A stretch of 64,000 bases of DNA from an uncultured Verrucomicrobiae bacterium (GTDB lineage Bacteria > Verrucomicrobiota > Verrucomicrobiia > Palsa-1439), in contig CAWEWF010000011.1 in assembly GCA_963812605.1 (NCBI GenBank), forward strand, positions 9,708 to 73,707, written 5' to 3'. The stretch's first letter is position 1. Each line of letters opens with the position of its first letter. Positions 35,520 through 63,027 of the stretch are shown piece by piece. The notes under the pieces are model-generated. The model was not told the DNA's origin. It saw nothing but the letters and a program-made list of their open reading frames with translations, and ran no database searches. Position numbers and translations under genes: made by a program.

Positions 35520-35563
35520 ATCACCGTTGAGTGATTCGTCCCGTGGCTGAGTCTGAATTGTCA

Positions 35564-38755: not shown

Positions 38756-38765
38756 AAAGGAAGTC

Positions 38766-40055
38766 ATGGCAGATTTAAGCATCAATTGCGGCGGCATCAA
38801 ATCACCCAACCCGTTCTGGCTCGCCAGCGCGCCGCCGACCAACAGCGGCGGCCAGATCCAGCGCGCGTTCGACCTGGGGTGGGGCGGCGCCGTGTGGAAA
38901 ACGCTCGGCGAAACCATCATCAACGTCAACTCCCGCTTCTGGTCCCTCGACTACGGCTCGACCCGCATGATGGGCCTGAACAATATCGAGCTCATCACCG
39001 CGCGTCCTTGGGACACCAACATTCGCGAGATCAAGGAAACGAAAAAGAAGTATCCCAAGAACGCCGTCATTGTCTCGATGATGATCGAATCGAAGCAAGA
39101 GGCGTGGCACAAGGCCGTCAAGGAAGTTAATGACACGGGTTGCGACGGCATCGAGTTGAATTTCGGTTGCCCGCACGGGATGAGCGAACGCGGCATGGGC
39201 AGCGCCGTCGGCCAGGTGCCCGAGTACACGAAGATGATTACCGAATGGGTGAAGGAAGTCGCCGAAGTTCCCGTGCTGGTGAAGTTGACGCCGAACATCA
39301 GCAACGTCGCCGTCGTCGGGCGCGCGGCCGCCGCCGGCAAAGCCGACGGCATTTCGTTGATCAATACCATCAACTCGATCATGGGCATCAACCTCGACAA
39401 TTTCGCGCCGTACCCGAGCGTGGACGGCAAAGGCAGCCATGGCGGTTACTGCGGCCCCGCCGTCAAGCCCATCGCGCTCAACATGGTCAGCGCGATTGCC
39501 AAGGACGCGGAGATCGGCATTCCCGTTTCGGGCATCGGCGGCATCACGACCTGGCAGGATGCCGTGGAGTTCATGGTGCTCGGCGCGACGAGCGTGCAGG
39601 TCTGCACGGCGGTGATGCATTACGGCTACCGCATCGTCGAGGACATGATCGACGGGCTCTCGAACTGGATGGATGAGAAGGGCTATAAGAAGTGCACCGA
39701 CTTCATCGGCAAGGCGCTGCCGAACATCAAGGACTGGAGCGACCTTAACCTCAATTACAAACTCGTCGCCCGCATCAATGCCGATCTCTGCATCGGCTGC
39801 GAACTCTGCCACGTCGCCGCGTGGGACGGGTCACACCAGTGCATCGACCTCGAAATGGGCAACGGCCACCGCGTGCCGGTCATCAACGATCCCGAATGCG
39901 TCGGCTGCAATCTCTGCATGCTCGTCTGTCCCGTCGACGGCTGCATTCAAATGGTCGAGGTCGAAACCGGCAAGAAGTCGATGTCCTGGCGCCAATACCA
40001 GGCGGAACTCGGAAAGAACCCGAAGTGCGAGCCGCCCGGTTACATTGAGCACTAG
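38766..40055 (+). CDS. preA: Dihydropyrimidine dehydrogenase subunit PreA
   Basis: 'NPFWLASAPP', 'NNIELI', 'ELNFGCPHGMSERGMG' and 'KLTPN'; C-terminal 4Fe-4S motifs. Confidence 0.95.
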   Translation: MADLSINCGGIKSPNPFWLASAPPTNSGGQIQRAFDLGWGGAVWKTLGETIINVNSRFWSLDYGSTRMMGLNNIELITARPWDTNIREIKETKKKYPKNAVIVSMMIESKQEAWHKAVKEVNDTGCDGIELNFGCPHGMSERGMGSAVGQVPEYTKMITEWVKEVAEVPVLVKLTPNISNVAVVGRAAAAGKADGISLINTINSIMGINLDNFAPYPSVDGKGSHGGYCGPAVKPIALNMVSAIAKDAEIGIPVSGIGGITTWQDAVEFMVLGATSVQVCTAVMHYGYRIVEDMIDGLSNWMDEKGYKKCTDFIGKALPNIKDWSDLNLNYKLVARINADLCIGCELCHVAAWDGSHQCIDLEMGNGHRVPVINDPECVGCNLCMLVCPVDGCIQMVEVETGKKSMSWRQYQAELGKNPKCEPPGYIEH

Positions 40056-42447: not shown

Positions 42448-43084
42448 CATGTCCTCACGTATTCCGCCGGAACCGGGACGAGATTCCTTTGTGAAGTCTC
42501 CGCCACAAAGAGGAAGTTGATAGCTGGGCCTCGCGTCCCAATCATTAGCTTCCCGAGACGAACCCAAGCTGGCCAAAGAAGATTCCCCATCACCGCGCGG
42601 CGCAATGCGTTGACGCATATGTGAGGACAATATCTCGAATGTGACAATCAACGAGTTCACCCATCAGGAAGAACTGTATGTAAAGTTGCGGCGATAAGTT
42701 TGCCAGTTGCCTGCTGACGTTGTGTAACTGATTGATCATACTTGGCTGGTGTTTTTCAGTCAGGTGCGCGAGCAACTGTTCTGCCTGTAGTCGCCGGTGT
42801 GTTATTACTTCAGATTCGGAAACACAGCCGAGGTCGGTTGGGCAAACGTGGAATACTGCGCCTAGTTGCTCCAACAGCTCGATAAACTCCATGATCTGAC
42901 TTTCGCCAAGCCTACCCCCCTTGACTTCCTTCCTGCCGTATCCCCACTTGTGCTTCAGTGCGATAAAGCGCTGCTCAAAATCAGAATGAAGTTCTTCCGC
43001 AATGGTCAGAGCACCGACGCAGCTAATACTGTGTTGGCCAAGTTGAGGAACAAAGACTCCGGATTCGTCGATATAAACAACCAT
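42385..43084 (-). CDS. DUF3800-like protein; frameshift near 42640
   Basis: N-terminal 'VYIDESG' and 'EVKG'. Confidence 0.65.
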
Positions 43085-43328
43085 GCAGAATTCCCCATTA
43101 CGCGGAGTATGCCAACGCATTCCGGCAGGGACAAGCCTGACGATATTTCAGCCGGTAAGACAAGCAGGCCGGGCGGGCGAGAGTTTTATGGCGTTACCGG
43201 AGAGGAAAGAATCGTAAACGACAGAGATCCTTCGACAAGCTCAGGATGACAACCGGGGGAGAAGGCAACGTTACCGGGCGGCGGCTGGGCCAGCCGTCCT
43301 TACCAACGACCTCGGCGATCTTTGCGTC

Positions 43329-44643
43329 TCAGCTCTTCTCGATAATCGTAAAGACCTCATCCAGCGTCTTGATGATGAAATCGCTGTCGGCATTCGTGAT
43401 GCAGAAGCGGGGGTTTGATGCGGATGGTGTTGGCGGCCATGCCGCCGCGACCGATGAGCAGACCCCGGTCTTTGCACAATTCCATCGCGCGCTGGACGTG
43501 TTGCGGCGCGACTTCCTTCGATTCCTTGTCCTTCACGATCTCCAGGCCGCGCATGAGACCCTTGCCGCGATGTTCGCCGACGATCTTGTGGTCGCGAACC
43601 AGCTTGTCGAAGCCGGCGGCCAGACGGTCACCCTGGACCTTGGCGTTGTGCATATAATTGTTGCGCTCGATGCATTCGACGACCGCGAGACCAGCGGCCA
43701 TCGAGACGGGATTGCCGCCGTAGGTATTGAAGTGGACCTTCTCGCGCATGGACTCGGCGATTTCCTTCGTGCAGGTCACGCCGCCGAGCGGGATGCCATT
43801 GCCCATGCCCTTGGCCATCGTGATCATGTCGGGCTTCACGCCCCATTGCTCGATGCCCCACCATTTGTCACCCGTGCGCCCGAAGCCCGTCTGTACTTCA
43901 TCGGAGATGAACACGCCGCCGTATTTCTTCACGATGTCGTAGGTGATTTCGAAATATTCCTTCGGCGGATCGATCACGCCGCCAAATCCCTGGATCGGTT
44001 CCGCGATGAACGCGGCGATCTTGCCGGACGTGTTGTACTTGATGACGTCCTCGAGTTCGCGCGCGCAAGCGACGTTGCAGGAGGGATACTTCAGGCCGAA
44101 CGGGCAGCGGTAACAGTAGCCCGGCGAAATGTGGGTGACCCCAAAGACGTACGGCAAGGAGTGCCGCCATTTCGACTGGCCCGTCATCGTCATCGCCATC
44201 AGCGTGCGCCCGTGGAAACTGTGGCGCAGGGCGATGAATTCCGTTTGCTTGGTGTAATTCTTCGCGAGCAGCGCGGCCAGTTCGTTCGCCTCGCAGCCGC
44301 TGTTCGTGAAGAAGCTGACCTTCAATCCGCCGGGCATGACCGTCGCCAGTTTTTCGGCGTAGCGGACCAAATTCGGGTGATAATACAATGTGGTCATGTG
44401 CTGCAGATTTTTCATCTGCTCGATGGTCGGGTTGGTCACTTCGGGATGGCAATGGCCGACGCTGATCGTGACCACCGCGGAAAATCCGTCGAGATACTTG
44501 TTGCCCTTGTCGTCATAGACGAACTGCATGTCGCCCTTCACGATGTTCATCGGAAAATACTTCATCGTGCTGGGCAGGATGTACTCGTCGCGCATCTGCC
44601 CGATCTGGTCGGGCGTCAAAGTTTCGGTTGGTTTCATGTGCAT
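43329..44643 (-). CDS. Class III aminotransferase (beta-alanine/beta-aminoisobutyrate transaminase candidate); frameshift near 43410
   Basis: 'FIAEPIQG', 'DEVQTGFGRTG' and 'MAKGMGNG'; pyrimidine catabolism context. Confidence 0.9.
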
Positions 44644-44802
44644 GGGGATTACCTCATAATCAAGATTTAGGTATTGCTACGAGCATACACCGCAAGCCTA
44701 TTTTTTTACCAGAGATTTTTCTCCGGGCGCTGCAAGTCATCGTTTACGGCTGAAATTGCCTAACCAGTTGACGTCGCCGCCAAGATTGGAGATACTACAA
44801 AC

Positions 44803-44985
44803 ATGAGCGGGCCCAGCGTGAAGCGTGAATTGAAAAGCATCGCGGCGCAACTGCCTGATTCGGCTACGTATTCCGACGCGATGTATGAGCTTTACGTGCG
44901 AATGAAGATCGCGGCCGGTCGAAAGGCCGCCACTGAAGGGCGTATCATCTCGCATGCTGCCGTGAAACGCCGCTTTGCCAAGTGA
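44803..44985 (+). CDS. Antitoxin
   Basis: 'QLPDSATYSDAMYELYV..KI..G....EGRIISH'; overlaps the toxin gene. Confidence 0.75.
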   Translation: MSGPSVKRELKSIAAQLPDSATYSDAMYELYVRMKIAAGRKAATEGRIISHAAVKRRFAK

Positions 44986-45272
44986 TGAAGGTCGTCTGGA
45001 CCGCTCCGGCCGTTTCTGATTTGGACGCAATTCGTGGCTACATCGCCCGTGACTCCAAAGTTTACTCCGACACGATGGTGGTGGAGATCTTCGAAGCGGT
45101 GGATCGTCTGATGAAATTTCCCCGGTCAGGCCGCATCGTGCCCGAAGAGAGCGACCCCAACACCCGCGAAGTAATCGTGGGTAACTATCGTGTGATCTAT
45201 GAGATCAGCGGCGCGACAGTGCGCATATTGACAGTTCTTCACAGCGCCCGGCTCTACCGGAAACCGTCCTGA
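44982..45272 (+). CDS. RelE/ParE-family toxin
   Basis: 'VVWT..A..DL..I..YIA', 'FPRSGRIVPE' and 'YRVIY'. Confidence 0.9.
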   Translation: MMKVVWTAPAVSDLDAIRGYIARDSKVYSDTMVVEIFEAVDRLMKFPRSGRIVPEESDPNTREVIVGNYRVIYEISGATVRILTVLHSARLYRKPS

Positions 45273-45388
45273 CCGCTTGCGCGAAGCCGGTGGCTGCGGC
45301 GACGTGGCCCATCTCAGCGAACCACATCTTCGCCATGCCCAGAAAGCACTCTTTGTCGCAGGGAGTTGACGTGTATAGCGCAATTTGG

Positions 45389-45724
45389 TTAGAGCACCAT
45401 CGAATAATTGTCGATGTATTTGTCTATATCTTGTCGCCCCAAATAGCACTTTCCAGCGCGTTCAAAAACGTTGAATTGGTCCTGCCCGCCGGACGATTTG
45501 CTGAGTAAATTTCGGTGCGTGTCAATGAAGCTTCTTGGGAGACAGACTGCCTTTATGTTGTCGTCGTCATATCCACACAGCAGCACAGCGCCTTGGAACT
45601 CTCCCTCAGGCAAGCCGAGCCACCATTTCCGTCCATCCGCCATTTTCCTTCCGGTACTATACGTGATCCCTACGCGCTCTCCTTTACTGTTTTGGTAAAT
45701 CGTCCCGCGAATGTGAGTCAACAT
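45389..45724 (-). CDS. Hypothetical protein
   Basis: 111 aa low-GC ORF with GGAGG RBS downstream of the NCS1 gene. Confidence 0.5.
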   Translation of the reverse strand: MLTHIRGTIYQNSKGERVGITYSTGRKMADGRKWWLGLPEGEFQGAVLLCGYDDDNIKAVCLPRSFIDTHRNLLSKSSGGQDQFNVFERAGKCYLGRQDIDKYIDNYSMVL

Positions 45725-45754
45725 CCCTCCGTGGTCAGCGAGCTTCCCGGCAGT

Positions 45755-47281
45755 TCACACCGCTGCTTGCGGCTTGCGCACGAGGGTCATCCAGGCCCAG
45801 TACACAACGAATGAAATGGAGAAGCCGACGAACCACGCGTAGCTGTACAGGTGCATCAGGAATGGCCCGACGGTTGCAGGGTCCACCAGCTTGATGGTGC
45901 CGAGGAAGCCGGGCACATTCGGGGCGATCCCGAGCACCAGTGCCACGATGGCCGCGGGGTTGAATCCGCTGCCGTAAAAATACCGGCCGTCGCGCAAATA
46001 AAGTTGAACCGGATTCAACCGCGTCTGCCGGATCACGAAGTAGTCGCAGATCAGAATCCCGCCGATGGGCCCGAGCAGGGCCGAGTAACCAACCAGCCAC
46101 GTGAAGATGTAACCGCTCGGGTCGGCCACCAGTTTCCATGGTTGGATCAGGATGCCGATGATGCCGGTGATCAGACCGCCGATGCGGAAAGTGATCCTGG
46201 ACGGCCAGAGGTTCGAAAAGTCATTGGCCGGGCTGACAACATTTGCGGCGAGATTGGTGGCCAGCGTCGCGAGGCACAAGGCAAACAACGAAATACCGAG
46301 CACGGCTGGGCTCTTGAATTTGGTAATGAGCACCACGGGATCCCAGATCGCGGAACCATAGATCACGATCGTCGCGGACGTTACGGCCACACCGATGAAC
46401 GAGTACAACGCCATGGTGGTTGGCAAACCAACCGCCTGGCCGATGACCTGATCACGTTGCGTGCGCGAGTAGCGGGTAAAGTCGGGGATGTTCAGGGAAA
46501 GCGTGGCCCAATAACCGATCATGCCGGTCAGTGCCGGGAAAAATATCAGCCAGAATTGCCCCGCTTTCGGGCCGCCCGGCACAAAGGCCGACGGTTGCGA
46601 GAGCATCGGCCCGAAACCGTTGGCGGCGCGATAGGCCCAGGCGAGCAGGGCCAACCCGAGGAGGATAAGCAGCGGCGCTTTAATATCGAGGAGGATGCGG
46701 ATCGACTCGATACCCTTGTAAATGACGAGCATGTTGATCCCCCAGAAAAACATGAAGCAGGCAAACTGCGCGATGTTGATGCCGCCCCACCAGCTCGGCA
46801 GGGAATTCCACGCGGGCACGTAGATGGTAATGATCTTGTAAATCGCCCAACCGCCAATCCACGTCTGGATGCCGAACCAGCCGCAGGCGACAAACGCGCG
46901 CAACAGCGCGGGGATGTTCGCGCCGCGAATGCCGAAGGATGCGCGGCAATAAACGGGGAAGGGGATGCCGTATTTCGTGCCGGCATGCGCGTTGAGAATC
47001 ATCGGCACCAGCACGATGGCGTTGCCAAAGAAAATCGTAAACACGGCCTGATACCAATTCATGCCCTCGGAGATCAGCGATGAGGCGAGCATGTAGGTCG
47101 GGATGCAGGCCGACATGGAAATCCACAACGCCGCGATGTCTTTCATGCCCCACTTGCGGTCTTTCACCAGCGTCGGGGCGATGTCCTCGTTCCAGTACGG
47201 CGAATGCGAGATATTGTCCGTGACCTCGTGGATGCCGTTGGTAACGCGGACGCCTTCGAGTTCCTGGATGGGCACGTTCAT
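45755..47281 (-). CDS. NCS1 nucleobase:cation symporter
   Basis: Multi-TM; 'GTKYGIPFPV', 'CGWFGIQ' and 'WATLSLNIPDFTRY'. Confidence 0.92.
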   Translation of the reverse strand: MNVPIQELEGVRVTNGIHEVTDNISHSPYWNEDIAPTLVKDRKWGMKDIAALWISMSACIPTYMLASSLISEGMNWYQAVFTIFFGNAIVLVPMILNAHAGTKYGIPFPVYCRASFGIRGANIPALLRAFVACGWFGIQTWIGGWAIYKIITIYVPAWNSLPSWWGGINIAQFACFMFFWGINMLVIYKGIESIRILLDIKAPLLILLGLALLAWAYRAANGFGPMLSQPSAFVPGGPKAGQFWLIFFPALTGMIGYWATLSLNIPDFTRYSRTQRDQVIGQAVGLPTTMALYSFIGVAVTSATIVIYGSAIWDPVVLITKFKSPAVLGISLFALCLATLATNLAANVVSPANDFSNLWPSRITFRIGGLITGIIGILIQPWKLVADPSGYIFTWLVGYSALLGPIGGILICDYFVIRQTRLNPVQLYLRDGRYFYGSGFNPAAIVALVLGIAPNVPGFLGTIKLVDPATVGPFLMHLYSYAWFVGFSISFVVYWAWMTLVRKPQAAV

Positions 47282-47285
47282 CGGG

Positions 47286-48161
47286 CTACGGGAGCAATTC
47301 GGACATTTCCTTGTAGGTCTCAGGACGGCGGTCGCGATAAAACTGCCAGACGTTGCGCACTTCGCGGATCACGTCGAGGTTCAGGTCGGCGACGATGATG
47401 GCGTCCTTTTCGCGCGGGCCTTCGGCGATGATTTTGCCGCGCGGATTGGCGAAATAGCTTTGCCCGTAAAATTCGCCGAAGTCCCAGGGCTTCTCCGTCC
47501 CGACGCGATTGATCGCGCCCACGTAAAAGATATTCGCCACCGCCGCCGCGGGTTGTTCGAGTTTCCACAAGTATTCGCTCAAGCCCGCCACCGTGGCGCT
47601 GGGATTGAAAACGATCTCGGCGCCGTTGAGGCCGAGCAGCCGCCAGCCTTCGGGGAAATGGCGGTCGTAACAAATATAAACGCCAATCTTGCCGACCGCC
47701 GTCTCGAACACAGGATAGCCGAGGTTGCCGGGCTTGAAATAAAACTTCTCCCAGAAGCCGGGCTGGCAGTGGGGGATGTGGTTCTTGCGATACTTGCCGA
47801 GATATTTGCCATCGGCATCGATAACCGCCGCCGTGTTGTAGTACGTGCCGGTGGCTTCCTCTTCGTACACGGGAACGATGAGCACCATCCCGTGTTTCTT
47901 TGCCAGCCGCTGCATCAACTTGATGGTCGGACCGTCCGGCACGCGCTCGGTTGACTCGTACCACTTGATCTCCTGTTCGCAACAGAAATACGGGCCGTAA
48001 AAAATCTCCTGCATGCAGAGCACTTGCACGCCCTTTTTCGCCGCCTGCTCGATCAGCTTCACGTGCTTCTCGATCATCGCCTGCTTGATCTTCTTGACGG
48101 ACGACGCGCCTGACTCCGGGTTGGTCGCTTGAATCAGTCCGCCGCGTACGATGCGTGCCAT
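47286..48161 (-). CDS. Beta-ureidopropionase (nitrilase family)
   Basis: E-K-C triad in 'QEIF', 'YRKNHIP' and 'ICYDRHFPE'. Confidence 0.9.
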   Translation of the reverse strand: MARIVRGGLIQATNPESGASSVKKIKQAMIEKHVKLIEQAAKKGVQVLCMQEIFYGPYFCCEQEIKWYESTERVPDGPTIKLMQRLAKKHGMVLIVPVYEEEATGTYYNTAAVIDADGKYLGKYRKNHIPHCQPGFWEKFYFKPGNLGYPVFETAVGKIGVYICYDRHFPEGWRLLGLNGAEIVFNPSATVAGLSEYLWKLEQPAAAVANIFYVGAINRVGTEKPWDFGEFYGQSYFANPRGKIIAEGPREKDAIIVADLNLDVIREVRNVWQFYRDRRPETYKEMSELLP

Positions 48162-48173
48162 GTTGCGCTCTCC

Positions 48174-49709
48174 TCAATAAATGTTTGTTTGACGCTTTAC
48201 CCCCGTGTAGTCGTAGAACACGGTCTTCAGTTGCGTGAAGAAATTCAGCCCTTCATCGCTCATTTCGCGGCTGCCGTAGCCGGTCGCCTTGAATCCGCCG
48301 AACGGCAATTGTGCTTCGCCGCCAACGGTCGGCGAGTTGATGTGTACCATGCCGGCTTCGATCCGGTCCGTGAACCGCATCACAAGATTTGCGTCGCCGG
48401 TGTAAATCGCACAGGTCAGGCCGAACTGCACGTTATTGGCGACGGCCATGGCTTCCTCGAAATCGCCCACGCGAAAGACGGCCAGCACCGGGCCGAAGAC
48501 TTCCTCCTGCGCCAGCGTGTGCTCGGGCTTCACGTTGTCGAACACGGTCGGCGCTACGAAATAGCCCTTCCCGAGTTTTCCGTCGGTAAGCGCGTTACCG
48601 CCGATCAAGCACTTGTTGCCCTCTTTTTTGGCGATCTCGATATACCGCAGGTCGGTTTCGTACTGCGCCTTGTCAACTGCCGGGCCCATGTGGACGCCGT
48701 CTTCCGTGCCGTCACCCACCTTGATCTTCTTGACGCGCTCGATCAGTTTTTCGAGAAACTTGTCCGCAATCGCCTTGTGCAGAACCAGGCGGCTGGTCGC
48801 GGTGCAGCGCTGACCGGTCGAACCGAAAGCGCCTTGCGCGCAGCCTTCGACGGCGAGGTCGATATCGGCGTCGTCCATCACCACCAACGGGTTTTTGCCG
48901 CCCATTTCGCATGTGACCTTTGCCAAATGCGCGGCGGCCTGCTTGGCGACCTGTCCGCCGGTTTCACAGGAACCGGTAAACGAGACCGCGCGAACGGTCT
49001 TGTTGTTCACGAACTCATCGCCGACGGTGCCGCCGCCGCCGTAGACGAGATTCAGCGCGCCTTTGGGCAGGCCGGCATCTTCATAAATTTTTGCGAGCAA
49101 TTCCGCGCAGCCGGGGGTATTGCTCGCGGCCTTGAAGACCACCGTATTGCCGGCGACCAGCGCGGGCGCCGTTTTCCACACGGGAATGCAGAAAGGAAAA
49201 TTCCAGGGCGTGACGCAGCTCACCACGCCGAGCGGCTGGCGAATCGTGTACACGAACGTGCTGGGCACCTCGCTCGGCGAGGTCCGACCCTCGATGCGAA
49301 AGGACTGGCCCGCATAATACTCGAGCAGGTTGATGCCTTTCTGGACTTCGCCGCGCGATTCGCTGAGGGTCTTGCCTTCCTCGCGCGTCATCGTGCGGGC
49401 GATTTCCTCTTTGCGCTCGTAAGTAAGTTGCACGGCCCTGGCGAGGATGCGACCGCGGGCGGGCGCGGGCGTATTGCGCCATGCTGGAAACGCGGCCTGG
49501 GCGGCGGCGATGCCTGCCTGCGCTTCTTCGCGGGTCGACTGCGGCGCGTGGCCGATGATGTCGTCGGTGTTGGCGGGATTGATGTTGGGTGTGGACTTAC
49601 CCGAGGACGAATCCACCCACTGTCCGTTGATGAAATTCTTGTAGCGGCGCGACTCAGCGGCGGGTTTTGCGGCGCTTTGCGGTTTGTCGGCGAGTGCTTG
49701 TGGCGGCAT
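48174..49709 (-). CDS. Aldehyde dehydrogenase (KGSADH-like, probably non-acylating)
   Basis: 'TPWNFP', 'FTGS', 'EMGGKNP', 'GQRCTA' and 'EEVFGP'. Confidence 0.9.
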
Positions 49710-50613
49710 GTTTGGAACTCCTCTTCTGGCTCCCTAAAATCTCGTTTGTCAGTTTCTCAACCGCGTCGTGCGGGTCAAGTTTTCTCTTGGCGACATCGGT
49801 CAGAACGGTTTGCGCCCGTGGCCCTTCTAGCGCACGAAGTATAGTGGCCGTCAGGCGCGATTGCAATAGTCGAGTCACCTCCGCGCGCACGGCCCGCGCG
49901 CGCCTTTTTGCCAATTCACCCGAATGCACAAGATAGGCGTGGTGGACGTCCATCGCCCCGCAAAGGGTTGGGATGCCTTCGCCGCTCTTGGCCGACGTGT
50001 GAATCGTTGGACGCTCCCATTTGATCGCGCTGTATCGGGGGCCGGCTGCGGGGGCGCGGGCATTGAACAAATCCACCTTGTTAACCACCAAAATGTCCGC
50101 GATCTCCATCAAACCGGACTTCGCCCGCTGGATCTCATCGCCCAATTCGGGCATGAGCACCACGACGACCGTGTCCGCAACTTCCGCAACTTCCACTTCA
50201 TCCTGCCCCGTGCCCACTGTTTCCACGATCACGATGTCGAACCCCGCGGCGTCCAGCGCATGGATGATCTGCGGTGTCGAATCGGTCACCCCGCCGTGAT
50301 GGTGGCGCGTCGCCAGGCTGCGGATGAACACCCCCTCGTCCTCGCTGTGCCGTTGCATTCGCAGCCGGTCCCCCAGCAGCGCGCCGCCCGAGATCGGACT
50401 CGTCGGATCGATCGCAATCACGCCGACGGTCTTGTGTTGGCGGCGCAAATTGTCGATGAGCCGGTCGATCAGCGAACTTTTCCCCACGCCGGGCGGTCCG
50501 GTGACGCCGAGAATGCGCGCCTTGCCCGTGCGCCGGTAAAGTTCCGTCGGCAACGGCTCGCCGCTATCGAGGCGGGTGATCAACTTGGTGAGTTCTTTGC
50601 CGTGCATGATCAT
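49654..50613 (-). CDS. meaB: Methylmalonyl-CoA mutase-associated GTPase
   Basis: 'GPPGVGKS', 'DPTSPISGGALLGDRLRM', 'ETVGTGQDE' and 'NKVD'. Confidence 0.92.
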   Translation of the reverse strand: MIMHGKELTKLITRLDSGEPLPTELYRRTGKARILGVTGPPGVGKSSLIDRLIDNLRRQHKTVGVIAIDPTSPISGGALLGDRLRMQRHSEDEGVFIRSLATRHHHGGVTDSTPQIIHALDAAGFDIVIVETVGTGQDEVEVAEVADTVVVVLMPELGDEIQRAKSGLMEIADILVVNKVDLFNARAPAAGPRYSAIKWERPTIHTSAKSGEGIPTLCGAMDVHHAYLVHSGELAKRRARAVRAEVTRLLQSRLTATILRALEGPRAQTVLTDVAKRKLDPHDAVEKLTNEILGSQKRSSKHAATSTRRQTAKRRKTRR

Positions 50614-51002
50614 CGCCGGCTGCTCTGGATGAACTCCACGATGCTGCCAATGGAACTGCCCGGGCCGAAGACTTCCTTGATGCCCAGCTTCTTCAATTTT
50701 TTCACGTCATCGTCGGGAATGATGCCGCCGGCAAATACCAACAGGCCCTTGACCTTTTCTTTTTTCAGCAATTCCATCACGCGCTTGAACTGCGCCATGT
50801 GGCCGCCCGAAAGCGAACTCAAGCCGATGACGTCCACATCTTCCTGTAGCGCGGCGGCGACGATCTGCTCGGGTGTGTTGCGAATGCCAGTGTACACGAC
50901 TTCCATCCCCGCATCGCGCAGCCCCATGGCCACGACGAGCGCGCCGCGCTCATGGCCATCAAGACCCGCTTTGGCAATCAAAACTTTAATGGGTCGGTTC
51001 AT
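50610..51002 (-). CDS. Cobalamin-binding subunit of acyl-CoA mutase
   Basis: 'GLDGHERG' and 'GGIIP' motifs. Confidence 0.92.
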   Translation of the reverse strand: MNRPIKVLIAKAGLDGHERGALVVAMGLRDAGMEVVYTGIRNTPEQIVAAALQEDVDVIGLSSLSGGHMAQFKRVMELLKKEKVKGLLVFAGGIIPDDDVKKLKKLGIKEVFGPGSSIGSIVEFIQSSRR

Positions 51003-51156
51003 AGTGGAAAATCCGAATTTCGAAATCCGAAACAAACTCGAATGACCGAAATCGGAAAACTCAAAAGGGGGCCGCCGGAACGATTTCCGCAATTGCATTC
51101 TTCGAATTTCGGATTTGTTTCGTGCTTCGAATTTCGGGATTCGGATTTGAGATTTG

Positions 51157-52665
51157 TCATATTGAATGATTTGCCCGATATTCGCCGAATGTTGCCCGCA
51201 ACACTTTGCAGATTTCGCCGACCGTGATGTAGTTGCGCACGCAGTCTACGACGATCGGCATCAGGTTTTCCGAACCCTTTGCTGCTTTTTCGAGGGTTGC
51301 GAGGCATTTGCCGACTTTGGCGGCGTTGCGTTTCTTGCGCAGCGCGGCCAGGTCGCGACGGCGGCGCGGCTCCAATTGCGGATCGATCTTTTGCCTTTGA
51401 ATCTTCAGCACCTTGTCGCTGACGCATTCGTTGACGCCGACAATGATCTTCTCTTTGCGCTCGACGGCCTTCTGGTGTTCGTACGCGGCGTGATAGATTT
51501 CCTTGTAAACGTAGCCACTCTCGATGGCCTTGAGCATCCCGCCCATGTTGTCGATTTTATTCAGGTATTCGCGGGCCTCTTGGGCGAGTTGGTCGGTGAG
51601 CGATTCGATATAAGGACTGCCGCCGAGCGGGTCGGGTTCGGTCGTCACGCCCGACTCGTAGGCGATGATTTGTTGGGTGCGCAACGCGAGCAATGCGGAT
51701 TCCTCGGTCGGCAGGGCAATCGCTTCGTCCTTGGCGTTGGTGTGCAGGCTTTGCGTGCCGCCGAGCACAGCCGCGAGCGCTTCGAGGGTGGTGCGGACGA
51801 CATTGTTGTCGGGTTGCTGGGCAGTGAGCGTCGAGCCGGCGGTTTGCGTGTGGAAACGCAACATCATCGAGCGTTCATGCTTTGCGCCAAAGCGGTCGCG
51901 CATGATGTGCGCCCAGAGCCGGCGCGCCGCGCGGAACTTCGCGATCTCCTCGAAGAAATTACTGTGGCAGTTGAAGAAAAATGCAAGACGTGGGGCGAAG
52001 TCGTCGACGTTCAGGCCACGCTCGACACAGGTCTGCACATAGGTGATGCCGTCGGCCAGCGTGAAGGCGATTTCCTGGGCGGCGGTGCAGCCGGCTTCAC
52101 GCATGTGATAGCCGCCGACGCTGATGGTGTTCCAGCCCGGCACTTCCTTTGCGCAGAATTCCACAATGTCGGCAATCAGGCGCAGGGAAGGTTTTGGCGG
52201 AAAAATGTAGGTGCCGCGCGCGATGTATTCCTTGAGAATGTCATTTTGTACAGTGCCCGAAACTTTGGCCCACGGGACGCGTTGCTTCTCGGCGACAGCG
52301 AGGTAGAGCGCCAACAAGATGCCAGCGGTCGCATTGATTGTCATCGACGTGCTGACCTTGTCGAGCGGGATGCCGGTGAAAACCTGTTCCATGTCCGCCA
52401 GTGACGAGATTGCGACGCCGACGCGACCGACTTCGCCAAGGGCCATCGCATCGTCGCTGTCGTACCCGATCTGCGTCGGCAAATCGAACGCCATCGAAAG
52501 ACCGGTCTGGCCCTGCCCGAGCAGATAGCGGTACCGCTGATTCGTTTCCTTTGCGGTGCCGAAGCCCGCATACTGGCGCATCGTCCAGAGCTTCCCGCGA
52601 TACATCGAAGCGTGGATCCCGCGCGTGAAGGGGAATTTGCCGGGTTGTTCGAGTGGCTCAGTCAT
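51157..52665 (-). CDS. Methylmalonyl-CoA mutase, large subunit
   Basis: '[16 protein letters not shown]', 'QNDILKEY' and 'HTQT'. Confidence 0.92.
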
Positions 52666-53062
52666 GCGGCTCGCAAAGTTCGACAAGCACGCCGTGGGCG
52701 GACTTTGGGTGGAGGAAGGCGATCTTGGCGCCACCGGCGCCGGTGCGTGGCTGTTCGTCGATGAGGCTGACGTTGGCGCTTTTCAGATTCTTCAGTTGCT
52801 CGGCGAGGTGGTCGGTTTGAAGGGTCAGGTGATGCAAACCTTCGCCGCGTTTATCGAGGAATTTCTGGATGGGGCTGTCGGGCGAGGTGGGTTCGAGCAA
52901 TTCAATGGTACTTTCGCCTGACTTCAGGATCGCAACGCGGACTTTCTGCTCGGGCACTTCCTCGATGTGCGAGAGTTTCAGGCCGAGCGCATCGACCCAG
53001 AATTTTTTGGCCTCGTCGATGCTCTTGACTGCGATGCCGATGTGGTCGATGCCGTTAATCAT
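52658..53062 (-). CDS. mce: Methylmalonyl-CoA epimerase
   Basis: 'DHIGIAV', 'IELLEP', 'GEGLHH' and '[14 protein letters not shown]'. Confidence 0.92.
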
Positions 53063-53182
53063 AAGACACCGTGTTTATATGGTAGCTGCGGCTGGAGAGG
53101 CAAAGCGGTGACGAGTCACCGCACTCCAAAAAGGAACGACAGAGATGCCTCGACAGGCTCGGCATGACAAGGATTTGCTGGA

Positions 53183-54403
53183 TCATACTGCGCCTGCCTT
53201 TTTCAAACCGGCGATGTCGTCATCTTTGTAGCCGAGATCGCGCAGAACTTCCGTCGTGTGCTGCCCGAGCAACGGCGGTGCGTCACCCGCGTCGCCGGGG
53301 GTCGCGGACAACTTCACGGGCACGCCGGTCATCTTCACCGACTTGAGTTTTGCGTGCGGACGCTCGACGACCATGTCGCGAGCGCGCACCTGCGGGTGCT
53401 CGAGCACTTCGGAGACGGAATAGATGGGGCCGCAGGGGATGCCGTTCTTTTCCAGCAACGCGAGCCATTCCTCGGCGGTCTTCTGCGCAAAAATCTTTTC
53501 CAGCACGGGGTACAACTCGGTATGATTCTCGACGCGCTTCGGATTGGTGGCGAATTTCTCGTGCGTCTTCAAGTCCGGCCGTCCGATGGCCTCGCAAAAC
53601 TGTTGCCAGAGACGGTCGTTGCCGGCGGCGAGGTTGAACCAGCGGTCGCTGGCCTTGAAGGTCTCGTAGGGCACGATGGTGGGATGCTGGTTTCCTTTGC
53701 GCGTCGGCGATTTGCCGGTGCCGAAATAAATACCGGCTTGATAGGTGAGGAACGAGACCTGTCCATCGAGCAGCGACACATCGACTTTTTGTCCGCGGCC
53801 CGTGCGCTGGCGGACCTGCAAGGCGAGGAGGATGCCGAGTGTCGCGTAGAGGCCGGCGGTGATGTCGGCCAGCGACGTGCCCGTTTTGAAGGGCGGACCG
53901 TTTGGTTCGCCCGTGAGGCTCATGATGCCACCTTGTCCCTGGATCGAGAGATCGTAGCCGGGGCGATCAGCCCAGGGACCGGTATGACCATAACCAGTGA
54001 CCGAGGCATAAATAATTTTCGGATTGAGTTTCACGACTTCGTCATAGCCGAAGCCGATGCTCGGCAGGAAGTCGCGGCGAAAATTTTCCACCAACACATC
54101 CGACTGTTGGATGAGCTTCTTCAGGATTTCGCGGGCCTCGGGTGTCTTGAGATTGAGCGTCAGGGATTTCTTGCCGCGATTGATGCTGAGGAAGTAGACG
54201 CTTTCGCCTTCGAGGAACGGCGGGCCGTAGGCGCGCGTGTCGTCACCCTTGTCGGGATTTTCTACTTTGATAATTTCCGCGCCGAAATCGCTCAAGAGCA
54301 TCGAGCAATAGGGCCCCGCCAAAATGCGCGAGAGATCCACAACCCGGATACCATCGAGAGGCTTCACATTGTCAAGGCTAACGATGCACGCTTGTTCTCG
54401 CAA
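53183..54403 (-). CDS. CoA transferase, family III (CaiB/BaiF)
   Basis: 'PLDGIRVVDLSRILAGP', 'NRGKKS', 'ENFR' and 'PGYD'. Confidence 0.92.
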   Translation of the reverse strand: MREQACIVSLDNVKPLDGIRVVDLSRILAGPYCSMLLSDFGAEIIKVENPDKGDDTRAYGPPFLEGESVYFLSINRGKKSLTLNLKTPEAREILKKLIQQSDVLVENFRRDFLPSIGFGYDEVVKLNPKIIYASVTGYGHTGPWADRPGYDLSIQGQGGIMSLTGEPNGPPFKTGTSLADITAGLYATLGILLALQVRQRTGRGQKVDVSLLDGQVSFLTYQAGIYFGTGKSPTRKGNQHPTIVPYETFKASDRWFNLAAGNDRLWQQFCEAIGRPDLKTHEKFATNPKRVENHTELYPVLEKIFAQKTAEEWLALLEKNGIPCGPIYSVSEVLEHPQVRARDMVVERPHAKLKSVKMTGVPVKLSATPGDAGDAPPLLGQHTTEVLRDLGYKDDDIAGLKKAGAV

Positions 54404-54426
54404 GTGTTTTCCGTTAGAAGGACGCC

Positions 54427-55173
54427 GTGCGCATTGTCGTCGATGACCTCAGCAAGTCCTACGGCCGCGTGATCGCTTTGCGCGACGTGTCGCTGTCGAT
54501 TGAGGCGGGGCAGATTGTGGCGTTGCTCGGCGCAAACGGAGCGGGGAAAACGACGTTATTACGCGCACTGGCGGGCATCGCCGCGCCCACGAAGGGGTCG
54601 ATCTATTACGACGATCAGTTGTTCCGTCGCGACCAATTGGCCTTGCGCCGGCGGTTGTTCTTTCTGCCGGATTTTCCGCCGATGTTCCCGACGATGAGGG
54701 TCACCGCGCACATTGGCATGTGCCTGCGCTTGTACGGACGGGATGACGATCGGCAAATTTCCAATTTGGGCGAGCGCGTAATCAGTCTGCTCGGCGACTT
54801 CGATCTCCTGCCATTGTCGGAAGCGCCGATCGGAACGCTTTCGCGCGGGCAGGCGTACAAGACCGCCCTGGTTGCGATGCTGGCGGTGGACCCGGACCTG
54901 TGGTTGCTCGACGAACCATTTGCTTCCGGCATCGACCCCCAGGGGATCCATGCCTTCAAGACCCATGTCACCGCGGCGGTGCGACGGGGACGGACGGTGA
55001 TCTACACGACACAGATTCTCGATATCGCCGAGAAATCATCCGACCGGGTTTGCGTGCTGGATCGCGGCGAGATGAAGGCGTTTGAGAACGTCGACCGGCT
55101 GCGCGCGTTGGCGGCCGGTACCCAGGAGGGCGCGTTGGAGGGGCTGTTTCGCCGGCTGCGGGAACAACCATGA
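54427..55173 (+). CDS. ABC transporter ATP-binding protein
   Basis: 'GANGAGKTT', 'LSRGQ' and 'LLDEP'. Confidence 0.9.
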   Translation: MRIVVDDLSKSYGRVIALRDVSLSIEAGQIVALLGANGAGKTTLLRALAGIAAPTKGSIYYDDQLFRRDQLALRRRLFFLPDFPPMFPTMRVTAHIGMCLRLYGRDDDRQISNLGERVISLLGDFDLLPLSEAPIGTLSRGQAYKTALVAMLAVDPDLWLLDEPFASGIDPQGIHAFKTHVTAAVRRGRTVIYTTQILDIAEKSSDRVCVLDRGEMKAFENVDRLRALAAGTQEGALEGLFRRLREQP

Positions 55174-56808
55174 TCGGCATCCGCTGGCGAAAGTTTGAGC
55201 GGGAATTGCGACGCCGGGTGCGCCGCAAGTTGCGCGGCTCGAAGGCGCGCTGGCGCGAGTATCGCCGGCGCAACAATCTCCGGCAACGCGTCATGCGCTG
55301 GTTCTCCTGGCCCATCGGCGTGATAGTGTATGCCGGGCTGGCAGTTTCGCCGCTGCTCCGGTTACGCGAAGGATTGGGCGATCACTCGTTTGGGGTAGCG
55401 CTCAATCTTGCGGCATTGATGTGGACGGGCATCGCACTGGTACGCTCGGCGAACCTTGTGAGCCAACTGCGCGGCGGACCGTACCTCGCGATGTTGTTGC
55501 GATTTCCGTTAAGCGATCGCGCGGTGTTTCGAATTGTGCTGGCCCGATTCCTAAGGGGTTCACTGGCCCTCGCAATCTACTTCTTTGCCGGGTCATGGTA
55601 TTTGGTCGTTTGGCAGCGTGGGAAGTCGGACTGGAACGCGGTAGGTTGGGCCGTCGTGGCGACTCTCTTGCAGTCCGTGGCGAACATGGCGCTCAGTCTG
55701 GCGGTACCCCAGCGGTTTCAGAAGGCGAAGCTGGGGCTTGCGGGTGTGCTTCTCTGCCTGGCGGGATTCATCTTCGGGTATGCCGCTGAATGGTTTGCGC
55801 CGTTGTTGCTACAGATGAGCGACTGGTTGTTGTGGGCGCAACCGGCCGGCTGGGTGCTGCTGCTCCTACACGCGGGCCAATGGCTCTTGTTCGTGCCGCT
55901 AGCGCTCCTGGTCGCGGCGGCGATTGGGAGCGTGCGCCAGTTGCAGGAGACCTATCAGGCGCCCAACTTGGAATCGCTGTTGCCCGTGGCGACGGTGGCG
56001 GAAAACTTCGAGGCGGTCAGCCCGACGGAGTTGCGCAAAGTCACGGAGACGCTGATGACCAAACGATTTCTGGAGGGGGTCGATTGGGGAAAGCAGCGGT
56101 GGATCGAACATCTCGTGGCGCGGTGGTGGACGGCGCGCGAACGGCTGCTCGCGGAGTTTCTCCTGGGAGGCCGGCCGCCTCGTTGGAGCCAAAACTGGCG
56201 GGCGGCGCTAAAGGCCGCGGCCTTCGGGCCGGCGCTGGCCCTTTTACCCGGCACGCTCGGCGCCGTGGCAAGTGTTGGCGCCTTCGGGGTGGCAACATTG
56301 GCTGCCACGGGAGTTTTCCTGACGGAGTGGCCCGGGTTAGCATGGCGTGCCGTCCGTTGGTCCCACCATTCCCGTCTACGCCCTTGCGCCGTGCGGTTTT
56401 TGGGAGATTGCCAGGATGGTAACCAAAGCCAACATCATTCGCACGCTCGCCTGGTTGCCGGCCATGGTGATTTGCGGTGCGGTGGCGGCGTGGCGGCTGC
56501 AGTTCGGCCCCGTCCAGGGCGCGGTTTTTGGGGTCCGGCTTTGTGGTGTTGAGTTGCTCGGTCAACCGATCGCGATCATGCTCCTTTTCTCGGCCCGCAC
56601 GAATGATACGAGCCGTCTTTGGCAACCCTGGGCGTGGATGCAGGCAGCTGCTCCTCGTGGGCGTCCTCTCGTCCGTGGTAATCGGATTCGTCATATTGTT
56701 TGCGCCAGTGTTGCCCGCCTTGATGGCCGCCGGTACTGTTTGGGCTGTGCACCGCCGGATGTCTCGGCCTGTATGCGCTGTGGTATCATCGGGGGGCTTT
56801 TGATTTGA
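55170..56808 (+). CDS. Putative ABC permease; frameshifts near 56345 and 56650
   Basis: Multiple TM helices; ATGA overlap with the ATPase gene. Confidence 0.65.
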
Positions 56809-63023: not shown

Positions 63024-63027
63024 GTGC

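Follow-up and report, generated by a model that had tools for sequence, protein, structure and literature searches.

Arrangement of the gene cluster

In a soil Verrucomicrobium, pyrimidine breakdown genes and the gene set of a B12-dependent methylmalonyl-CoA mutase are joined in one operon. How do the two parts belong together, and where would the carbon of thymine go? We analyzed the stretch of 64,000 nt that carries this operon (in the following called the window) by open reading frames (ORFs) and matches to Pfam and NCBIfam models. The eight close-set minus-strand genes at 45755–54403 are all placed as a preliminary description of this DNA had stated, with gaps of 4–120 nt or overlaps of 4–77 nt between neighbors according to the ORF coordinates. 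The aminotransferase, PreT/PreA and dihydropyrimidinase reported close by were likewise recovered by Pfam and NCBIfam matches. The features are:

53183–54403, minus: family III CoA-transferase (CoA_transf_3), operon gene 1; PF02515 466 bits
52658–53062, minus: methylmalonyl-CoA epimerase; TIGR03081 166.5 bits, cut-off 114.95
51157–52734, minus: methylmalonyl-CoA mutase large (substrate-binding) subunit, MM_CoA_mutase; TIGR00641 760 bits, cut-off 303.8
50610–51098, minus: B12-binding small subunit of the mutase; PF02310 90 bits; TIGR00640 147.3 bits, cut-off 57.45
49654–50613, minus: MeaB, G-protein chaperone of the mutase; TIGR00750 285.4 bits, cut-off 240.75
48174–49709, minus: aldehyde dehydrogenase (Aldedh, ALDH); PF00171 576 bits
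47286–48161, minus: beta-ureidopropionase-like carbon-nitrogen hydrolase (CN_hydrolase); PF00795 221.6 bits
45755–47281, minus: NCS1 nucleobase:cation symporter; PF02133 395.5 bits; TIGR00800 381.5 bits, cut-off 353.1
44982–45272, plus: ParE/RelE-type toxin gene; PF05016 69.5 bits
44737–45272: toxin insertion, consisting of the toxin gene and a small upstream ORF
43357–44643, minus: class III aminotransferase; PF00202 302 bits
40160–41605, minus: thiolase-like protein; Thiolase_N/Thiolase_C_1
38727–40055, plus: PreA, dihydropyrimidine dehydrogenase subunit; NF006183 659.4 bits, cut-off 335
37183–38616, plus: PreT, dihydropyrimidine dehydrogenase subunit; PF14691 125 bits, PF07992 115 bits
33925–35292, plus: dihydropyrimidinase; TIGR02033 470.7 bits, cut-off 393.25

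The toxin insertion parts NCS1 from the aminotransferase gene in the window's genome only, whereas the aminotransferase gene follows about 17 nt after NCS1 in four relatives. In these four and in a fifth relative, the thiolase-like gene comes next as operon gene ten. Its product in the window is extended by about 95 residues at the C-terminus and has no nucleophilic Cys: aligned to 7yvy, it shows a gap where A-C-A-S-G has its Cys. PreT adjoins PreA in the window and in relatives. Mutase, epimerase, MeaB and transferase are each present as a single copy in the window's genome.

Proposed route from thymine to succinyl-CoA

The best reading of the cluster is a complete reductive pyrimidine pathway with an inferred back end that departs from the textbook route in its final steps. 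The front-end enzymes are assigned by family, and their activities are predicted. NCS1 would import the base, PreT/PreA would reduce thymine or uracil, the dihydropyrimidinase would open the ring, and the nitrilase-type beta-ureidopropionase would release beta-aminoisobutyrate or beta-alanine, from which the class III aminotransferase would form methylmalonate or malonate semialdehyde. The hydrolytic ALDH would turn the semialdehyde into the free diacid, using no CoA and releasing no CO2, and the family III CoA-transferase would move CoA from succinyl-CoA to methylmalonate, releasing succinate. Because methylmalonate is prochiral, the enantiomer of methylmalonyl-CoA would be set by which carboxylate is esterified; the epimerase would provide the (R)-form, and the B12-dependent, MeaB-assisted mutase would convert methylmalonyl-CoA to succinyl-CoA. 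Since the mutase gives back succinyl-CoA, the CoA donor would be regenerated, and the net reaction would be methylmalonate semialdehyde + NAD(P)+ -> succinate + NAD(P)H. MmsA, a biotin carboxylase and propionyl-CoA would all be dispensable.

We lean toward this course for thymine, from methylmalonate semialdehyde through free methylmalonate and CoA transfer from succinyl-CoA to epimerase, mutase and succinyl-CoA. If true, the passage of thymine carbon to succinate via free methylmalonate is a route so far without description. The preliminary description had proposed this course, and it was left standing by the computational tests able to refute it (type of ALDH, mutase and transferase, carboxylase, distribution and synteny), while the release of free methylmalonate and its acceptance by the transferase are still steps that we infer. 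The term “carbon-conserving” used there is apt insofar as decarboxylation and recarboxylation would be avoided, but by our reasoning net carbon and ATP to succinate equal those of the route via MmsA and propionyl-CoA carboxylase where the carboxylase exists. Counting against the proposed route, the uracil branch would yield malonyl-CoA, for which the cluster has no obvious sink.

For the front end, the best solved relatives of the hydrolase are the beta-ureidopropionases 2vhh, 8pt4 and 6ftq (226–235 bits), ahead of N-carbamoylputrescine amidase (203) and D-carbamoylases (about 105). The best solved relative of the aminotransferase is the ethanolamine-phosphate phospho-lyase 6tor (274 bits), which we take to be a member of the AGXT2 family, and we propose a beta-alanine/beta-aminoisobutyrate aminotransferase. 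Other substrates might be considered, with the ALDH and the aminotransferase serving another omega-amino acid (GABA to succinate, 5-aminovalerate to glutarate), or the hydrolase, hydantoinase and NCS1 serving hydantoins or carbamoyl amino acids. Such a reading would suit the best NCBIfam matches of ALDH and hydrolase, which stay under cut-off, and the ALDH homologs at ≤51% identity that pair with class III aminotransferases outside pyrimidine contexts (four loci). It is nevertheless very unlikely: dihydropyrimidinase and PreA exceed equivalog cut-offs, the hydrolase is nearer to beta-ureidopropionases than to D-carbamoylases, ALDH orthologs at ≥56% identity retain the pyrimidine context across phyla, and glutaryl-CoA dehydrogenase is absent from the cluster.

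A putatively hydrolytic aldehyde dehydrogenase

An alignment reproduced the ALDH motifs C-E-M-G-G-K-N-P and G-Q-R-C-T-A given earlier. The enzyme keeps Glu268 (general base) and Cys302 of hydrolytic ALDHs, and Arg301 and Lys124 are also present:

48906–48908: ALDH codon for Glu268
48804–48806: ALDH codon for Cys302

Position 268 is Ala or Gly in two true MmsA proteins from relatives, both over the TIGR01722 cut-off. The MmsA of relatives read G-G-A-K-N-V and G-Q-R-C-M-A and so differ from the strings quoted in the preliminary description, while its point that MmsA lacks the Glu still holds. The ALDH of the window scored 371.5 bits against the MMSDH model TIGR01722, below the cut-off of 448.5. 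Its best NCBIfam family is KGSADH GucD (577.6 bits, below the cut-off of 770), and its nearest curated families are 2,5-dioxovalerate dehydrogenases, under cut-off, which counts against the proposed route. We propose a hydrolytic, non-CoA-acylating enzyme, a (methyl)malonate-semialdehyde dehydrogenase freeing the diacid, with the substrate suggested by the gene context.

Acidobacteriota and Wallbacteria have orthologs of 56–57% identity within pyrimidine clusters. At four of five loci of other phyla, such an ortholog adjoins a dihydropyrimidinase, PreTA, hydrolase, NCS1 or aminotransferase gene, without a mutase, and a quick tree placed the ALDHs with pyrimidine linkage outside a 59-row clade of other contexts. 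That the acidobacterial clusters have the ALDH without transferase or mutase was counted against the proposed route. Of the 10 genomes in the 31-genome family sample that carry the ALDH, 5 contain a true MmsA as well, which in one of them (G345) is part of a PreT-PreA-MmsA operon; the ALDH is thus not simply a replacement of MmsA.

Mutase and CoA-transferase

In the alignment, the mutase shares the RQ-Y-AGF and IA-R-GTY segments with human MCM; HcmA shows Ile and Gln instead of the Tyr and Arg. The two substrate positions therefore match methylmalonyl-CoA mutase and do not carry the residues of 2-hydroxyisobutyryl-CoA mutase.

For the transferase, the best NCBIfam match is succinate--glutarate CoA-transferase (379 bits, below the cut-off of 750). 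Among solved structures, human SUGCT (9br6, 343.6 bits) comes closest, with one query Asp aligned to a conserved Asp, and other solved relatives are the acetyl-CoA:oxalate enzyme YfdE (314.6 bits) and formyl-CoA transferases. By sequence, we place the transferase in the dicarboxylate/succinyl-CoA branch of family III and propose a succinyl-CoA:(methyl)malonate CoA-transferase. Its nearest homolog outside the taxonomic family (G099, 50–51% identity) counts against the proposed route. There, the gene sits between a fused mutase and a methylmalonyl-CoA decarboxylase match (NF008506 347.8 bits, cut-off 257); this locus is an Sbm-type succinate-to-propionate operon, in which the transferase would act on propionyl-CoA and succinate.

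Enzymes of alternative routes

In the window's genome (90% complete), we found no MmsA over cut-off, no PrpD and no YgfG-like decarboxylase, and the search for propionyl-CoA carboxylase with PF01039 gave two partial AccA/AccD-like matches only (69–72 bits). A propionyl-CoA carboxylase-type carboxyltransferase was absent from all 31 family genomes, with PF01039 yielding only partial AccA/AccD-like matches of ≤105 bits. The methylmalonyl-CoA decarboxylase model NF008506 was over cut-off in 0/31 family genomes, a weaker result since control genomes were also not over it; none of the 11 genomes with a mutase matched it at E ≤ 1e-20. Propionyl-CoA appears unusable by these organisms.

A propionyl-CoA without sink (no PF01039 carboxylase, no PrpD) would favor sparing the methyl-branched aldehyde from MmsA and thereby a division of labor. 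Free (methyl)malonate would come from the ALDH and methylmalonyl-CoA would be consumed by the mutase, with the transferase using another donor (e.g., acetyl-CoA) or mainly activating malonate; MmsA, where present, would take uracil-derived malonate semialdehyde, leaving only the thymine-derived aldehyde to the ALDH branch. The genomes with both MmsA and ALDH, the operon shared by MmsA and PreTA, and YfdE and the formyl-CoA transferases among the relatives of the transferase fit this arrangement. On the other hand, the adjacent mutase itself yields succinyl-CoA, so that this donor makes the cycle self-contained, even if sequence does not fix the donor, and no MmsA was seen in the window's genome. 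We regard this division as improbable.

Distribution and conserved neighborhood

The mutase is present in 11 of the 31 family genomes. This type of ALDH occurs in 10 of these 11 and in none of the 20 others; the transferase was found in eight genomes, all inside the 11, and PreA in ten, nine of them with the mutase. Conservation of the neighborhood had been named as a check on the proposed route, and the arrangement came back: with the ALDH as query, at each of 11 verrucomicrobial genome loci, and with the transferase as query, on 16 metagenome contigs. It is not due to chance. ALDH followed by hydrolase is kept at all 11 loci, and the full transferase-to-ALDH run at 6 of them and on the 16 metagenome contigs. 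A second, independent arrangement, a three-gene operon of transferase, epimerase and dihydropyrimidinase, is found on three other contigs.

Two genomes (G349 and G352, 94–95% complete) count against a simple reading, as mutase and B12 subunit lie in another context there and neither transferase nor epimerase was found. Contig L167, with the mutase directly after the transferase and without epimerase, counts against the proposed route. Since the cluster-bearing genomes all come from one family, one acquisition with linked losses may account for the co-distribution, which also counts against the proposed route.

Inherited linkage of this kind would also suit a reading with two independent modules side by side: an Sbm-type succinate/propionate set with a propionyl-CoA:succinate CoA-transferase, and a separate pyrimidine part of ALDH, hydrolase and NCS1, with malonate or methylmalonate going elsewhere. 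The G099 locus, with mutase, CoA-transferase, methylmalonyl-CoA decarboxylase and MeaB, points in this direction, as do the acidobacterial pyrimidine clusters that manage with an ALDH ortholog but no mutase. We nevertheless consider two modules rather unlikely. Neither decarboxylase type was found (PF01039 across 31/31 genomes; NF008506 in 0/31, with the weaker weight given above), the carboxylase for the reverse direction is absent too, in 10 of its 11 genomes the family mutase is accompanied by the ALDH/pyrimidine cluster, transferase and epimerase also form an operon with dihydropyrimidinase, and MeaB and ALDH abut or overlap in the window as on every contig seen.

Comparison with known systems

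For published bacterial Pyd clusters, MSDH or PydE is given as the last enzyme (PMC7332683), and acetyl-CoA formation by a Pseudomonas MSDH with CoA is reported to be about 10-fold faster than hydrolysis without CoA (PMC4907197). The window shares with the canonical route of Pyd, MmsA/MSDH and propionyl-CoA carboxylase the PreTA/PydA, dihydropyrimidinase, beta-ureidopropionase and beta-alanine-type aminotransferase, with epimerase and mutase last. Unlike that route, it has a dehydrogenase with the hydrolytic Glu268 that fails the MmsA model, a CoA-transferase at the operon head and no carboxylase; propionyl-CoA would be bypassed, and the window's mutase and pyrimidine genes share an operon.

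The sbm-ygfD-ygfG-ygfH (scpABC) operon of Escherichia coli is a succinate-to-propionate operon. Like the window, it and the verrucomicrobial equivalent at locus L156 of G099 combine mutase, MeaB-type GTPase and a succinate/succinyl-CoA-handling CoA-transferase in one locus. In contrast to G099, neither the window's genome nor the cluster-bearing relatives yielded the defining methylmalonyl-CoA decarboxylase; the window has an epimerase instead, plus the fusion to pyrimidine genes.

The glutarate route of lysine/5-aminovalerate catabolism runs through an aminotransferase, glutarate-semialdehyde dehydrogenase, succinyl-CoA:glutarate CoA-transferase and glutaryl-CoA dehydrogenase. It resembles the route proposed for the window in its omega-aminotransferase, hydrolytic ALDH, free dicarboxylate and family III CoA-transferase. 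Locus L089, with aminotransferase, ALDH, CoA-transferase and acyl-CoA dehydrogenase, offers a precedent for the logic of ALDH, free diacid and family III transferase. The glutarate route differs in using an acyl-CoA dehydrogenase (glutaryl-CoA dehydrogenase) and a C5 acid, where the window has a B12 mutase and the acid would be C4-branched.

MatB or ACSF3-type ligases activate malonate or methylmalonate at the expense of ATP. As in the proposed route, they lead from free methylmalonate to methylmalonyl-CoA for epimerase and mutase, whereas in the window the donor for the transferase would be what the mutase itself produces. The window's cluster encodes no ligase. At one acidobacterial locus, an AMP-binding enzyme is encoded near the ALDH, with a score of 355 that is below the malonyl-CoA synthase cut-off of 558.

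Gene content and arrangement of the cluster

The window was taken from contig C11 (positions 9708–73707) of an assembly of 4.17 Mb in 15 contigs that is approximately 90% complete. Using ORF calls and Pfam and NCBIfam assignments, we found eight ORFs on the minus strand between 45755 and 54403. The gene content read in the preliminary description, pyrimidine breakdown genes next to a B12-dependent methylmalonyl-CoA mutase set, was correct in every item.

Genes of the cluster and nearby pyrimidine genes
Operon, 45755–54403, minus strand:
family III CoA-transferase (Pfam/NCBIfam)
methylmalonyl-CoA epimerase (over the NCBIfam cut-off)
split methylmalonyl-CoA mutase, large and B12-binding subunits (both over cut-off)
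MeaB (over cut-off)
aldehyde dehydrogenase, ALDH (Pfam/NCBIfam)
carbon-nitrogen hydrolase (Pfam/NCBIfam)
NCS1 permease (over cut-off)
Nearby genes:
43357–44643, minus strand: class III aminotransferase
40160–41605, minus strand: thiolase-like gene
PreT and PreA: convergent, PreA over cut-off
dihydropyrimidinase: past a T5orf172-domain gene, over cut-off

Neighboring operon genes overlap by 4–77 nt or are separated by 4–120 nt. A scan of positions 43000–55500 yielded 7 promoter-like sites (4.3 expected) and 11 terminator-like sites (15.1 expected); these counts are uninformative, and the operon status therefore rests on spacing and synteny. A search of RNA sequencing runs with the entire operon as query yielded no match. 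In relatives, the aminotransferase directly follows the NCS1 gene and is itself followed by the thiolase-like gene. By this order the ancestral operon has ten genes, and the ParE-family toxin gene lying between NCS1 and the aminotransferase in the window is part of an insertion (44737–45272).

Small mobile or defense cargo enters the cluster at differing points among genomes. In the related genome G345, two genes lie between the B12 subunit and MeaB, one with a SocA/Panacea antitoxin domain and one of the Eco57I-like methylase/restriction type (L153:9004–14428), and on a second contig of that genome an integrase and an HNH gene are located just upstream of the mutase (L154:5258–7081). In the window, a MUG113/T5orf172-domain gene (35531–36310, plus strand) between the dihydropyrimidinase and PreT splits the pyrimidine genes. 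The thiolase-like protein, kept as the final operon gene in relatives, has 481 amino acids and lacks the nucleophilic cysteine: when it is aligned to 7yvy, the Cys of A-C-A-S-G falls opposite a gap. About 95 further residues at its C-terminus form an extension that by eye only resembles a DUF35-type OB fold.

Enzymes of the pyrimidine front end

The front end of the cluster corresponds to that of the known Pyd/Pre pathway, with a putative beta-ureidopropionase. PreA scored 659.4 bits on NF006183 (cut-off 335), as expected of a dihydropyrimidine dehydrogenase of this pathway, PreT has Fer4_20 and Pyr_redox_2 domains, and the dihydropyrimidinase scored 470.7 bits on TIGR02033 (cut-off 393.25). 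The hydrolase belongs to the CN_hydrolase family, with no NCBIfam equivalog over its cut-off. Among solved structures it matched beta-ureidopropionases best (226–235 bits), followed by N-carbamoylputrescine amidase (203 bits) and D-carbamoylases (about 105 bits). We rejected a role in an N-carbamoylputrescine/agmatine route because beta-ureidopropionases score higher and both PreTA and a dihydropyrimidinase are present. The best solved relative of the aminotransferase is the ethanolamine-phosphate phospho-lyase 6tor, a member of the AGXT2 family, to which the mammalian beta-aminoisobutyrate:pyruvate aminotransferase also belongs.

The aldehyde dehydrogenase is predicted to be hydrolytic

According to PMC7332683, published bacterial Pyd clusters end in methylmalonate-semialdehyde dehydrogenase (MSDH, or MmsA) or in the PydE reductase, and PMC4907197 describes a characterized bacterial MSDH as CoA-dependent. 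The ALDH of the cluster is predicted not to be such a CoA-acylating terminal enzyme. It matched PF00171 over its full length (576 bits) but reached only 371.5 bits on the MmsA model TIGR01722, below the cut-off of 448.5, while true MmsA proteins of relatives scored 570–635 bits. Its best NCBIfam matches, 2,5-dioxovalerate dehydrogenases, were likewise below cut-off, and a comparison with solved structures gave no close match.

We aligned the window ALDH with its acidobacterial orthologues and with two over-cut-off MmsA proteins of relatives (from genomes G007 and G022). The window ALDH and the acidobacterial orthologues share the motifs C-E-M-G-G-K-N-P and G-Q-R-C-T-A, where the MmsA proteins have A-[AG]-G-G-A-K-N-V and G-Q-R-C-M-A. 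In hydrolytic ALDHs, Glu268 activates the deacylating water. At this site the MmsA proteins of G007 and G022 read A-A-G-G-A-K and A-G-G-G-A-K, respectively, and the window protein reads C-E-M-G-G-K; all three residues of hydrolytic ALDHs, C302, E268 and N170, are present in it. On these residues, the window ALDH is a predicted hydrolytic NAD(P)+-dependent enzyme, set apart from MmsA both by score and by Glu268, which MmsA lacks. The window ALDH has Lys124 and Arg301 at two positions that are both Arg in MmsA and that bind the carboxylate in the Bacillus MSDH. A profile search of the window's genome, an approximately 90% complete assembly, found no MmsA over cut-off.

Mutase and CoA-transferase

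The mutase set exceeded the cut-offs of TIGR00641, TIGR00640 and TIGR00750, corresponding to the catalytic domain, the B12-binding domain and MeaB. Like human MCM, the mutase has Tyr in RQYAGF and Arg in IARGTY; HcmA (4r3u) has Ile and Gln. These Tyr and Arg residues hold the substrate carboxylate; in the mutases for hydroxyisobutyryl-CoA and isobutyryl-CoA, Ile/Gln or Phe/Gln take their places, and on this pattern we rejected a 2-hydroxyisobutyryl- or isobutyryl-CoA mutase. The protein is a predicted methylmalonyl-CoA mutase that would interconvert (R)-methylmalonyl-CoA and succinyl-CoA, the Tyr/Arg pair alone being also compatible with ethylmalonyl-CoA mutase.

PF02515 covers the transferase over positions 1–366 of 366 (466 bits), that is, the full-length family III fold. 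Its Asp180, the catalytic residue of family III CoA-transferases, aligns with an Asp of SUGCT. The best solved relative is the human succinate--hydroxymethylglutarate CoA-transferase (343.6 bits) and the best NCBIfam model is the succinate--glutarate CoA-transferase NF052585 (379.4 bits, below its cut-off of 750); the CoA:oxalate (342.9 versus 522) and mesaconate (312.6 versus 700) models were also below cut-off. Because SUGCT and succinate--glutarate enzymes are the best matches, we regard the transferase, judged by sequence, as a dicarboxylate-type family III enzyme. The window's genome has one copy each of the mutase, the epimerase, MeaB, the B12 subunit and the transferase.

Enzymes of propionyl-CoA metabolism

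In the window's genome, PF01039 gave only two partial matches of 69–72 bits, one in a frame of 264 residues and the other in a frame of 347 residues. Their pattern is that of putative AccD/AccA, not of a propionyl-CoA carboxylase, transcarboxylase or biotin-dependent decarboxylase. Across the 31 sampled genomes of the family, PF01039 matches were likewise only partial, with at most 105 bits, in all 31. Assimilation of propionate was rejected, as these searches found no carboxylase. PrpD was not found in the window's genome, and the 11 mutase-bearing genomes yielded one 35-bit fragment in a single genome. No YgfG-type decarboxylase is encoded in the cluster, and the ECH_1 (crotonase-family) proteins of the genome match ordinary hydratases. 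The YgfG model NF008506 was over cut-off in none of the 31 family genomes and likewise in none of the control genomes; PF05292 (malonyl-CoA decarboxylase) had no match in the window's genome, nor in the control genomes. As neither a carboxylase nor a methylmalonyl-CoA decarboxylase was found, nor PrpD beyond this fragment, propionyl-CoA would in these organisms serve the mutase neither as a source nor as a sink, and the only evident partner of the mutase is methylmalonyl-CoA that the transferase makes from, or converts to, the free acid.

The trio of mutase, MeaB and transferase is similar to the Sbm operon of E. coli, which converts succinate to propionate, and the window's transferase may retain the Sbm-type specificity for propionyl-CoA and succinate. 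Its nearest homologue outside the family, with 50–51% identity, lies in genome G099 between a fused mutase and an over-cut-off methylmalonyl-CoA decarboxylase, with MeaB nearby. The decarboxylase of Sbm is, however, absent from the window cluster, in which neither a crotonase-type nor a biotin-dependent methylmalonyl-CoA decarboxylase is predicted.

The Sbm-like locus of the distant verrucomicrobial genome G099 (L156, G099:C132:2000–21900) extends over approximately 6799–16219. It encodes a 706-aa fused mutase, the family III CoA-transferase and a YgfG-type decarboxylase (348 bits, cut-off 257), followed by MeaB a few genes on, and it adjoins genes of a 2-oxoacid:ferredoxin oxidoreductase. In place of the family III enzyme, the E. 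coli Sbm locus has a transferase of a different family.

Distribution and synteny

Within the family sample, the ALDH and the transferase occurred only in mutase-bearing genomes, although all cluster-bearing genomes are kin, so that the counts overstate independence.

Occurrence among the 31 family genomes
mutase: 11/31
ALDH of the window's type: 10/31, all 10 within the 11 with mutase, 0 of the other 20
CoA-transferase: 8/31, all 8 within the 11 with mutase
PreA: 10/31, 9 within the 11 with mutase

G022 has PreA and MmsA, and no mutase, ALDH or transferase. ALDHs with 76–91% identity to that of the window (L035–L045) came from metagenome-assembled genomes of Verrucomicrobiia/Verrucomicrobiota. 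The ALDH is followed by the hydrolase in all 11 verrucomicrobial loci retrieved with the ALDH query. Six of the 11 have the full run from transferase to ALDH; the rest reach contig borders or, in one case, have no transferase within 10 kb. With the transferase as query, the same run was found on 16 metagenome contigs, and a further three contigs end within the cluster; one contig (L167) lacks the epimerase.

Outside the Verrucomicrobiota, ALDH orthologues with 56–57% identity were found in Acidobacteriota and one Wallbacteria genome. Four of five such loci adjoin a dihydropyrimidinase, PreTA, hydrolase, NCS1 or aminotransferase gene and none has a mutase, while homologs with at most 51% identity lie in other gene contexts. 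In a quick IQ-TREE search, which gave long-branch warnings for L049, L050, L089 and L062, the pyrimidine-linked ALDHs fell outside a 59-row clade of other contexts. By genomic association, the cross-phylum orthologues link the ALDH as such with the pyrimidine pathway. Two metagenome contigs and one genome of the family (L184, L190, L248) carry a three-gene operon of transferase, epimerase and dihydropyrimidinase with unrelated flanks; by the same kind of association, this operon ties the transferase and epimerase to this pathway independently of the mutase. Together with the sole evident partner of the mutase, these two observations exceed inherited synteny as evidence of functional linkage.

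True MmsA also occurs in five of the 10 ALDH-bearing genomes, among them G345 with its PreT-PreA-MmsA operon (L243, G345:C109, 1105–5523). The ALDH is thus not a simple substitute for MmsA. A division of labor is possible, in which MmsA takes the uracil branch and the ALDH, transferase and mutase set takes the thymine branch. Two contigs of G345 also bear the ALDH/mutase cluster, and the transferase-epimerase-dihydropyrimidinase operon is present as well; as this genome is listed with 5% contamination, the gene copies may stem from more than one population.

In two genomes from a single genus of the family, G349 (L158, G349:C24) and G352 (L152, G352:C6), the genes for the mutase and its B12 subunit have a radical SAM gene on one side and a ferritin-like gene on the other, and in one of these loci a gene encoding a 23S rRNA intervening-sequence protein separates the pair. 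Neither an epimerase nor a transferase was found anywhere in these two genomes.

Proposed route of thymine breakdown

From the family assignments and comparative patterns, we infer which substrates the ALDH and the transferase use and in which direction flux runs; the most likely route is as follows. The base would be imported, reduced, ring-opened, decarbamoylated and then transaminated, so that thymine would give methylmalonate semialdehyde and uracil malonate semialdehyde, and the hydrolytic ALDH would release the free diacid. The transferase would shift CoA from succinyl-CoA onto methylmalonate, and epimerase and mutase would restore succinyl-CoA, so that methylmalonate semialdehyde would yield succinate and one NAD(P)H in net terms. 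Methylmalonate is prochiral, which would account for the presence of the epimerase. By our own reckoning, succinate is reached with the same ATP balance as on the route via MmsA, carboxylase and succinyl-CoA synthetase; the advantage would be freedom from biotin carboxylation and propionyl-CoA. Glutarate metabolism follows the same logic of ALDH, free dicarboxylate and family III transferase, which also appears at locus L089.

The proposed route is plausible and well supported by comparative genomics. We give an even chance to the full proposal that soil and peat Verrucomicrobia have an undescribed thymine route, in which two so far unassigned activities, a non-acylating methylmalonate-semialdehyde dehydrogenase and a succinyl-CoA:methylmalonate CoA-transferase, form with the epimerase and the B12 mutase a self-regenerating CoA cycle that converts methylmalonate to succinate and needs neither MmsA nor biotin carboxylase nor propionyl-CoA, and that the hydrolytic ALDH alone marks a wider undescribed ending in free (methyl)malonate, also in Acidobacteriota. 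A search of full-text literature, with most subscription journals outside its scope, returned no description of a route from methylmalonate semialdehyde via free methylmalonate and CoA transfer to the mutase, nor of a "methylmalonate CoA-transferase".

If true, MmsA and the PydE reductase would be joined by a third way of ending the reductive pyrimidine pathway, and free methylmalonate, usually regarded as a by-product that is toxic or leads nowhere, would gain a physiological role. Two large, poorly resolved families, the hydrolytic ALDHs and the family III CoA-transferases, would have members with assigned functions, and the presence of a B12-dependent mutase in organisms without propionyl-CoA carboxylase and methylcitrate cycle would be explained. 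The B12 demand of abundant soil Verrucomicrobia would be linked to the recycling of DNA-derived thymine, and pathway engineering would gain an ATP-free step from methylmalonate to methylmalonyl-CoA.

Other genes in the window

Successive ORFs at positions 4938–19868 match no known families, apart from one with a phage-tail domain (10978–13218), and the run is possibly a prophage remnant. An IS1595-family transposase gene (17512–18507) comes after that run, and the G+C content dips to 0.52–0.56 at 16–20 kb. A second B12-dependent enzyme, a class II ribonucleotide reductase with a TSCPD domain, is encoded at 20399–23437 (plus strand). PdxA and RsmA/KsgA are usually encoded by two adjacent genes. 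A single ORF of 585 amino acids at 61371–63128 (minus strand) combines a PdxA domain (residues 74–298) with an RsmA/KsgA rRNA dimethylase domain (residues 334–581), and in a relative the RsmA/KsgA-type methylase is a stand-alone gene (L153:181–1056).
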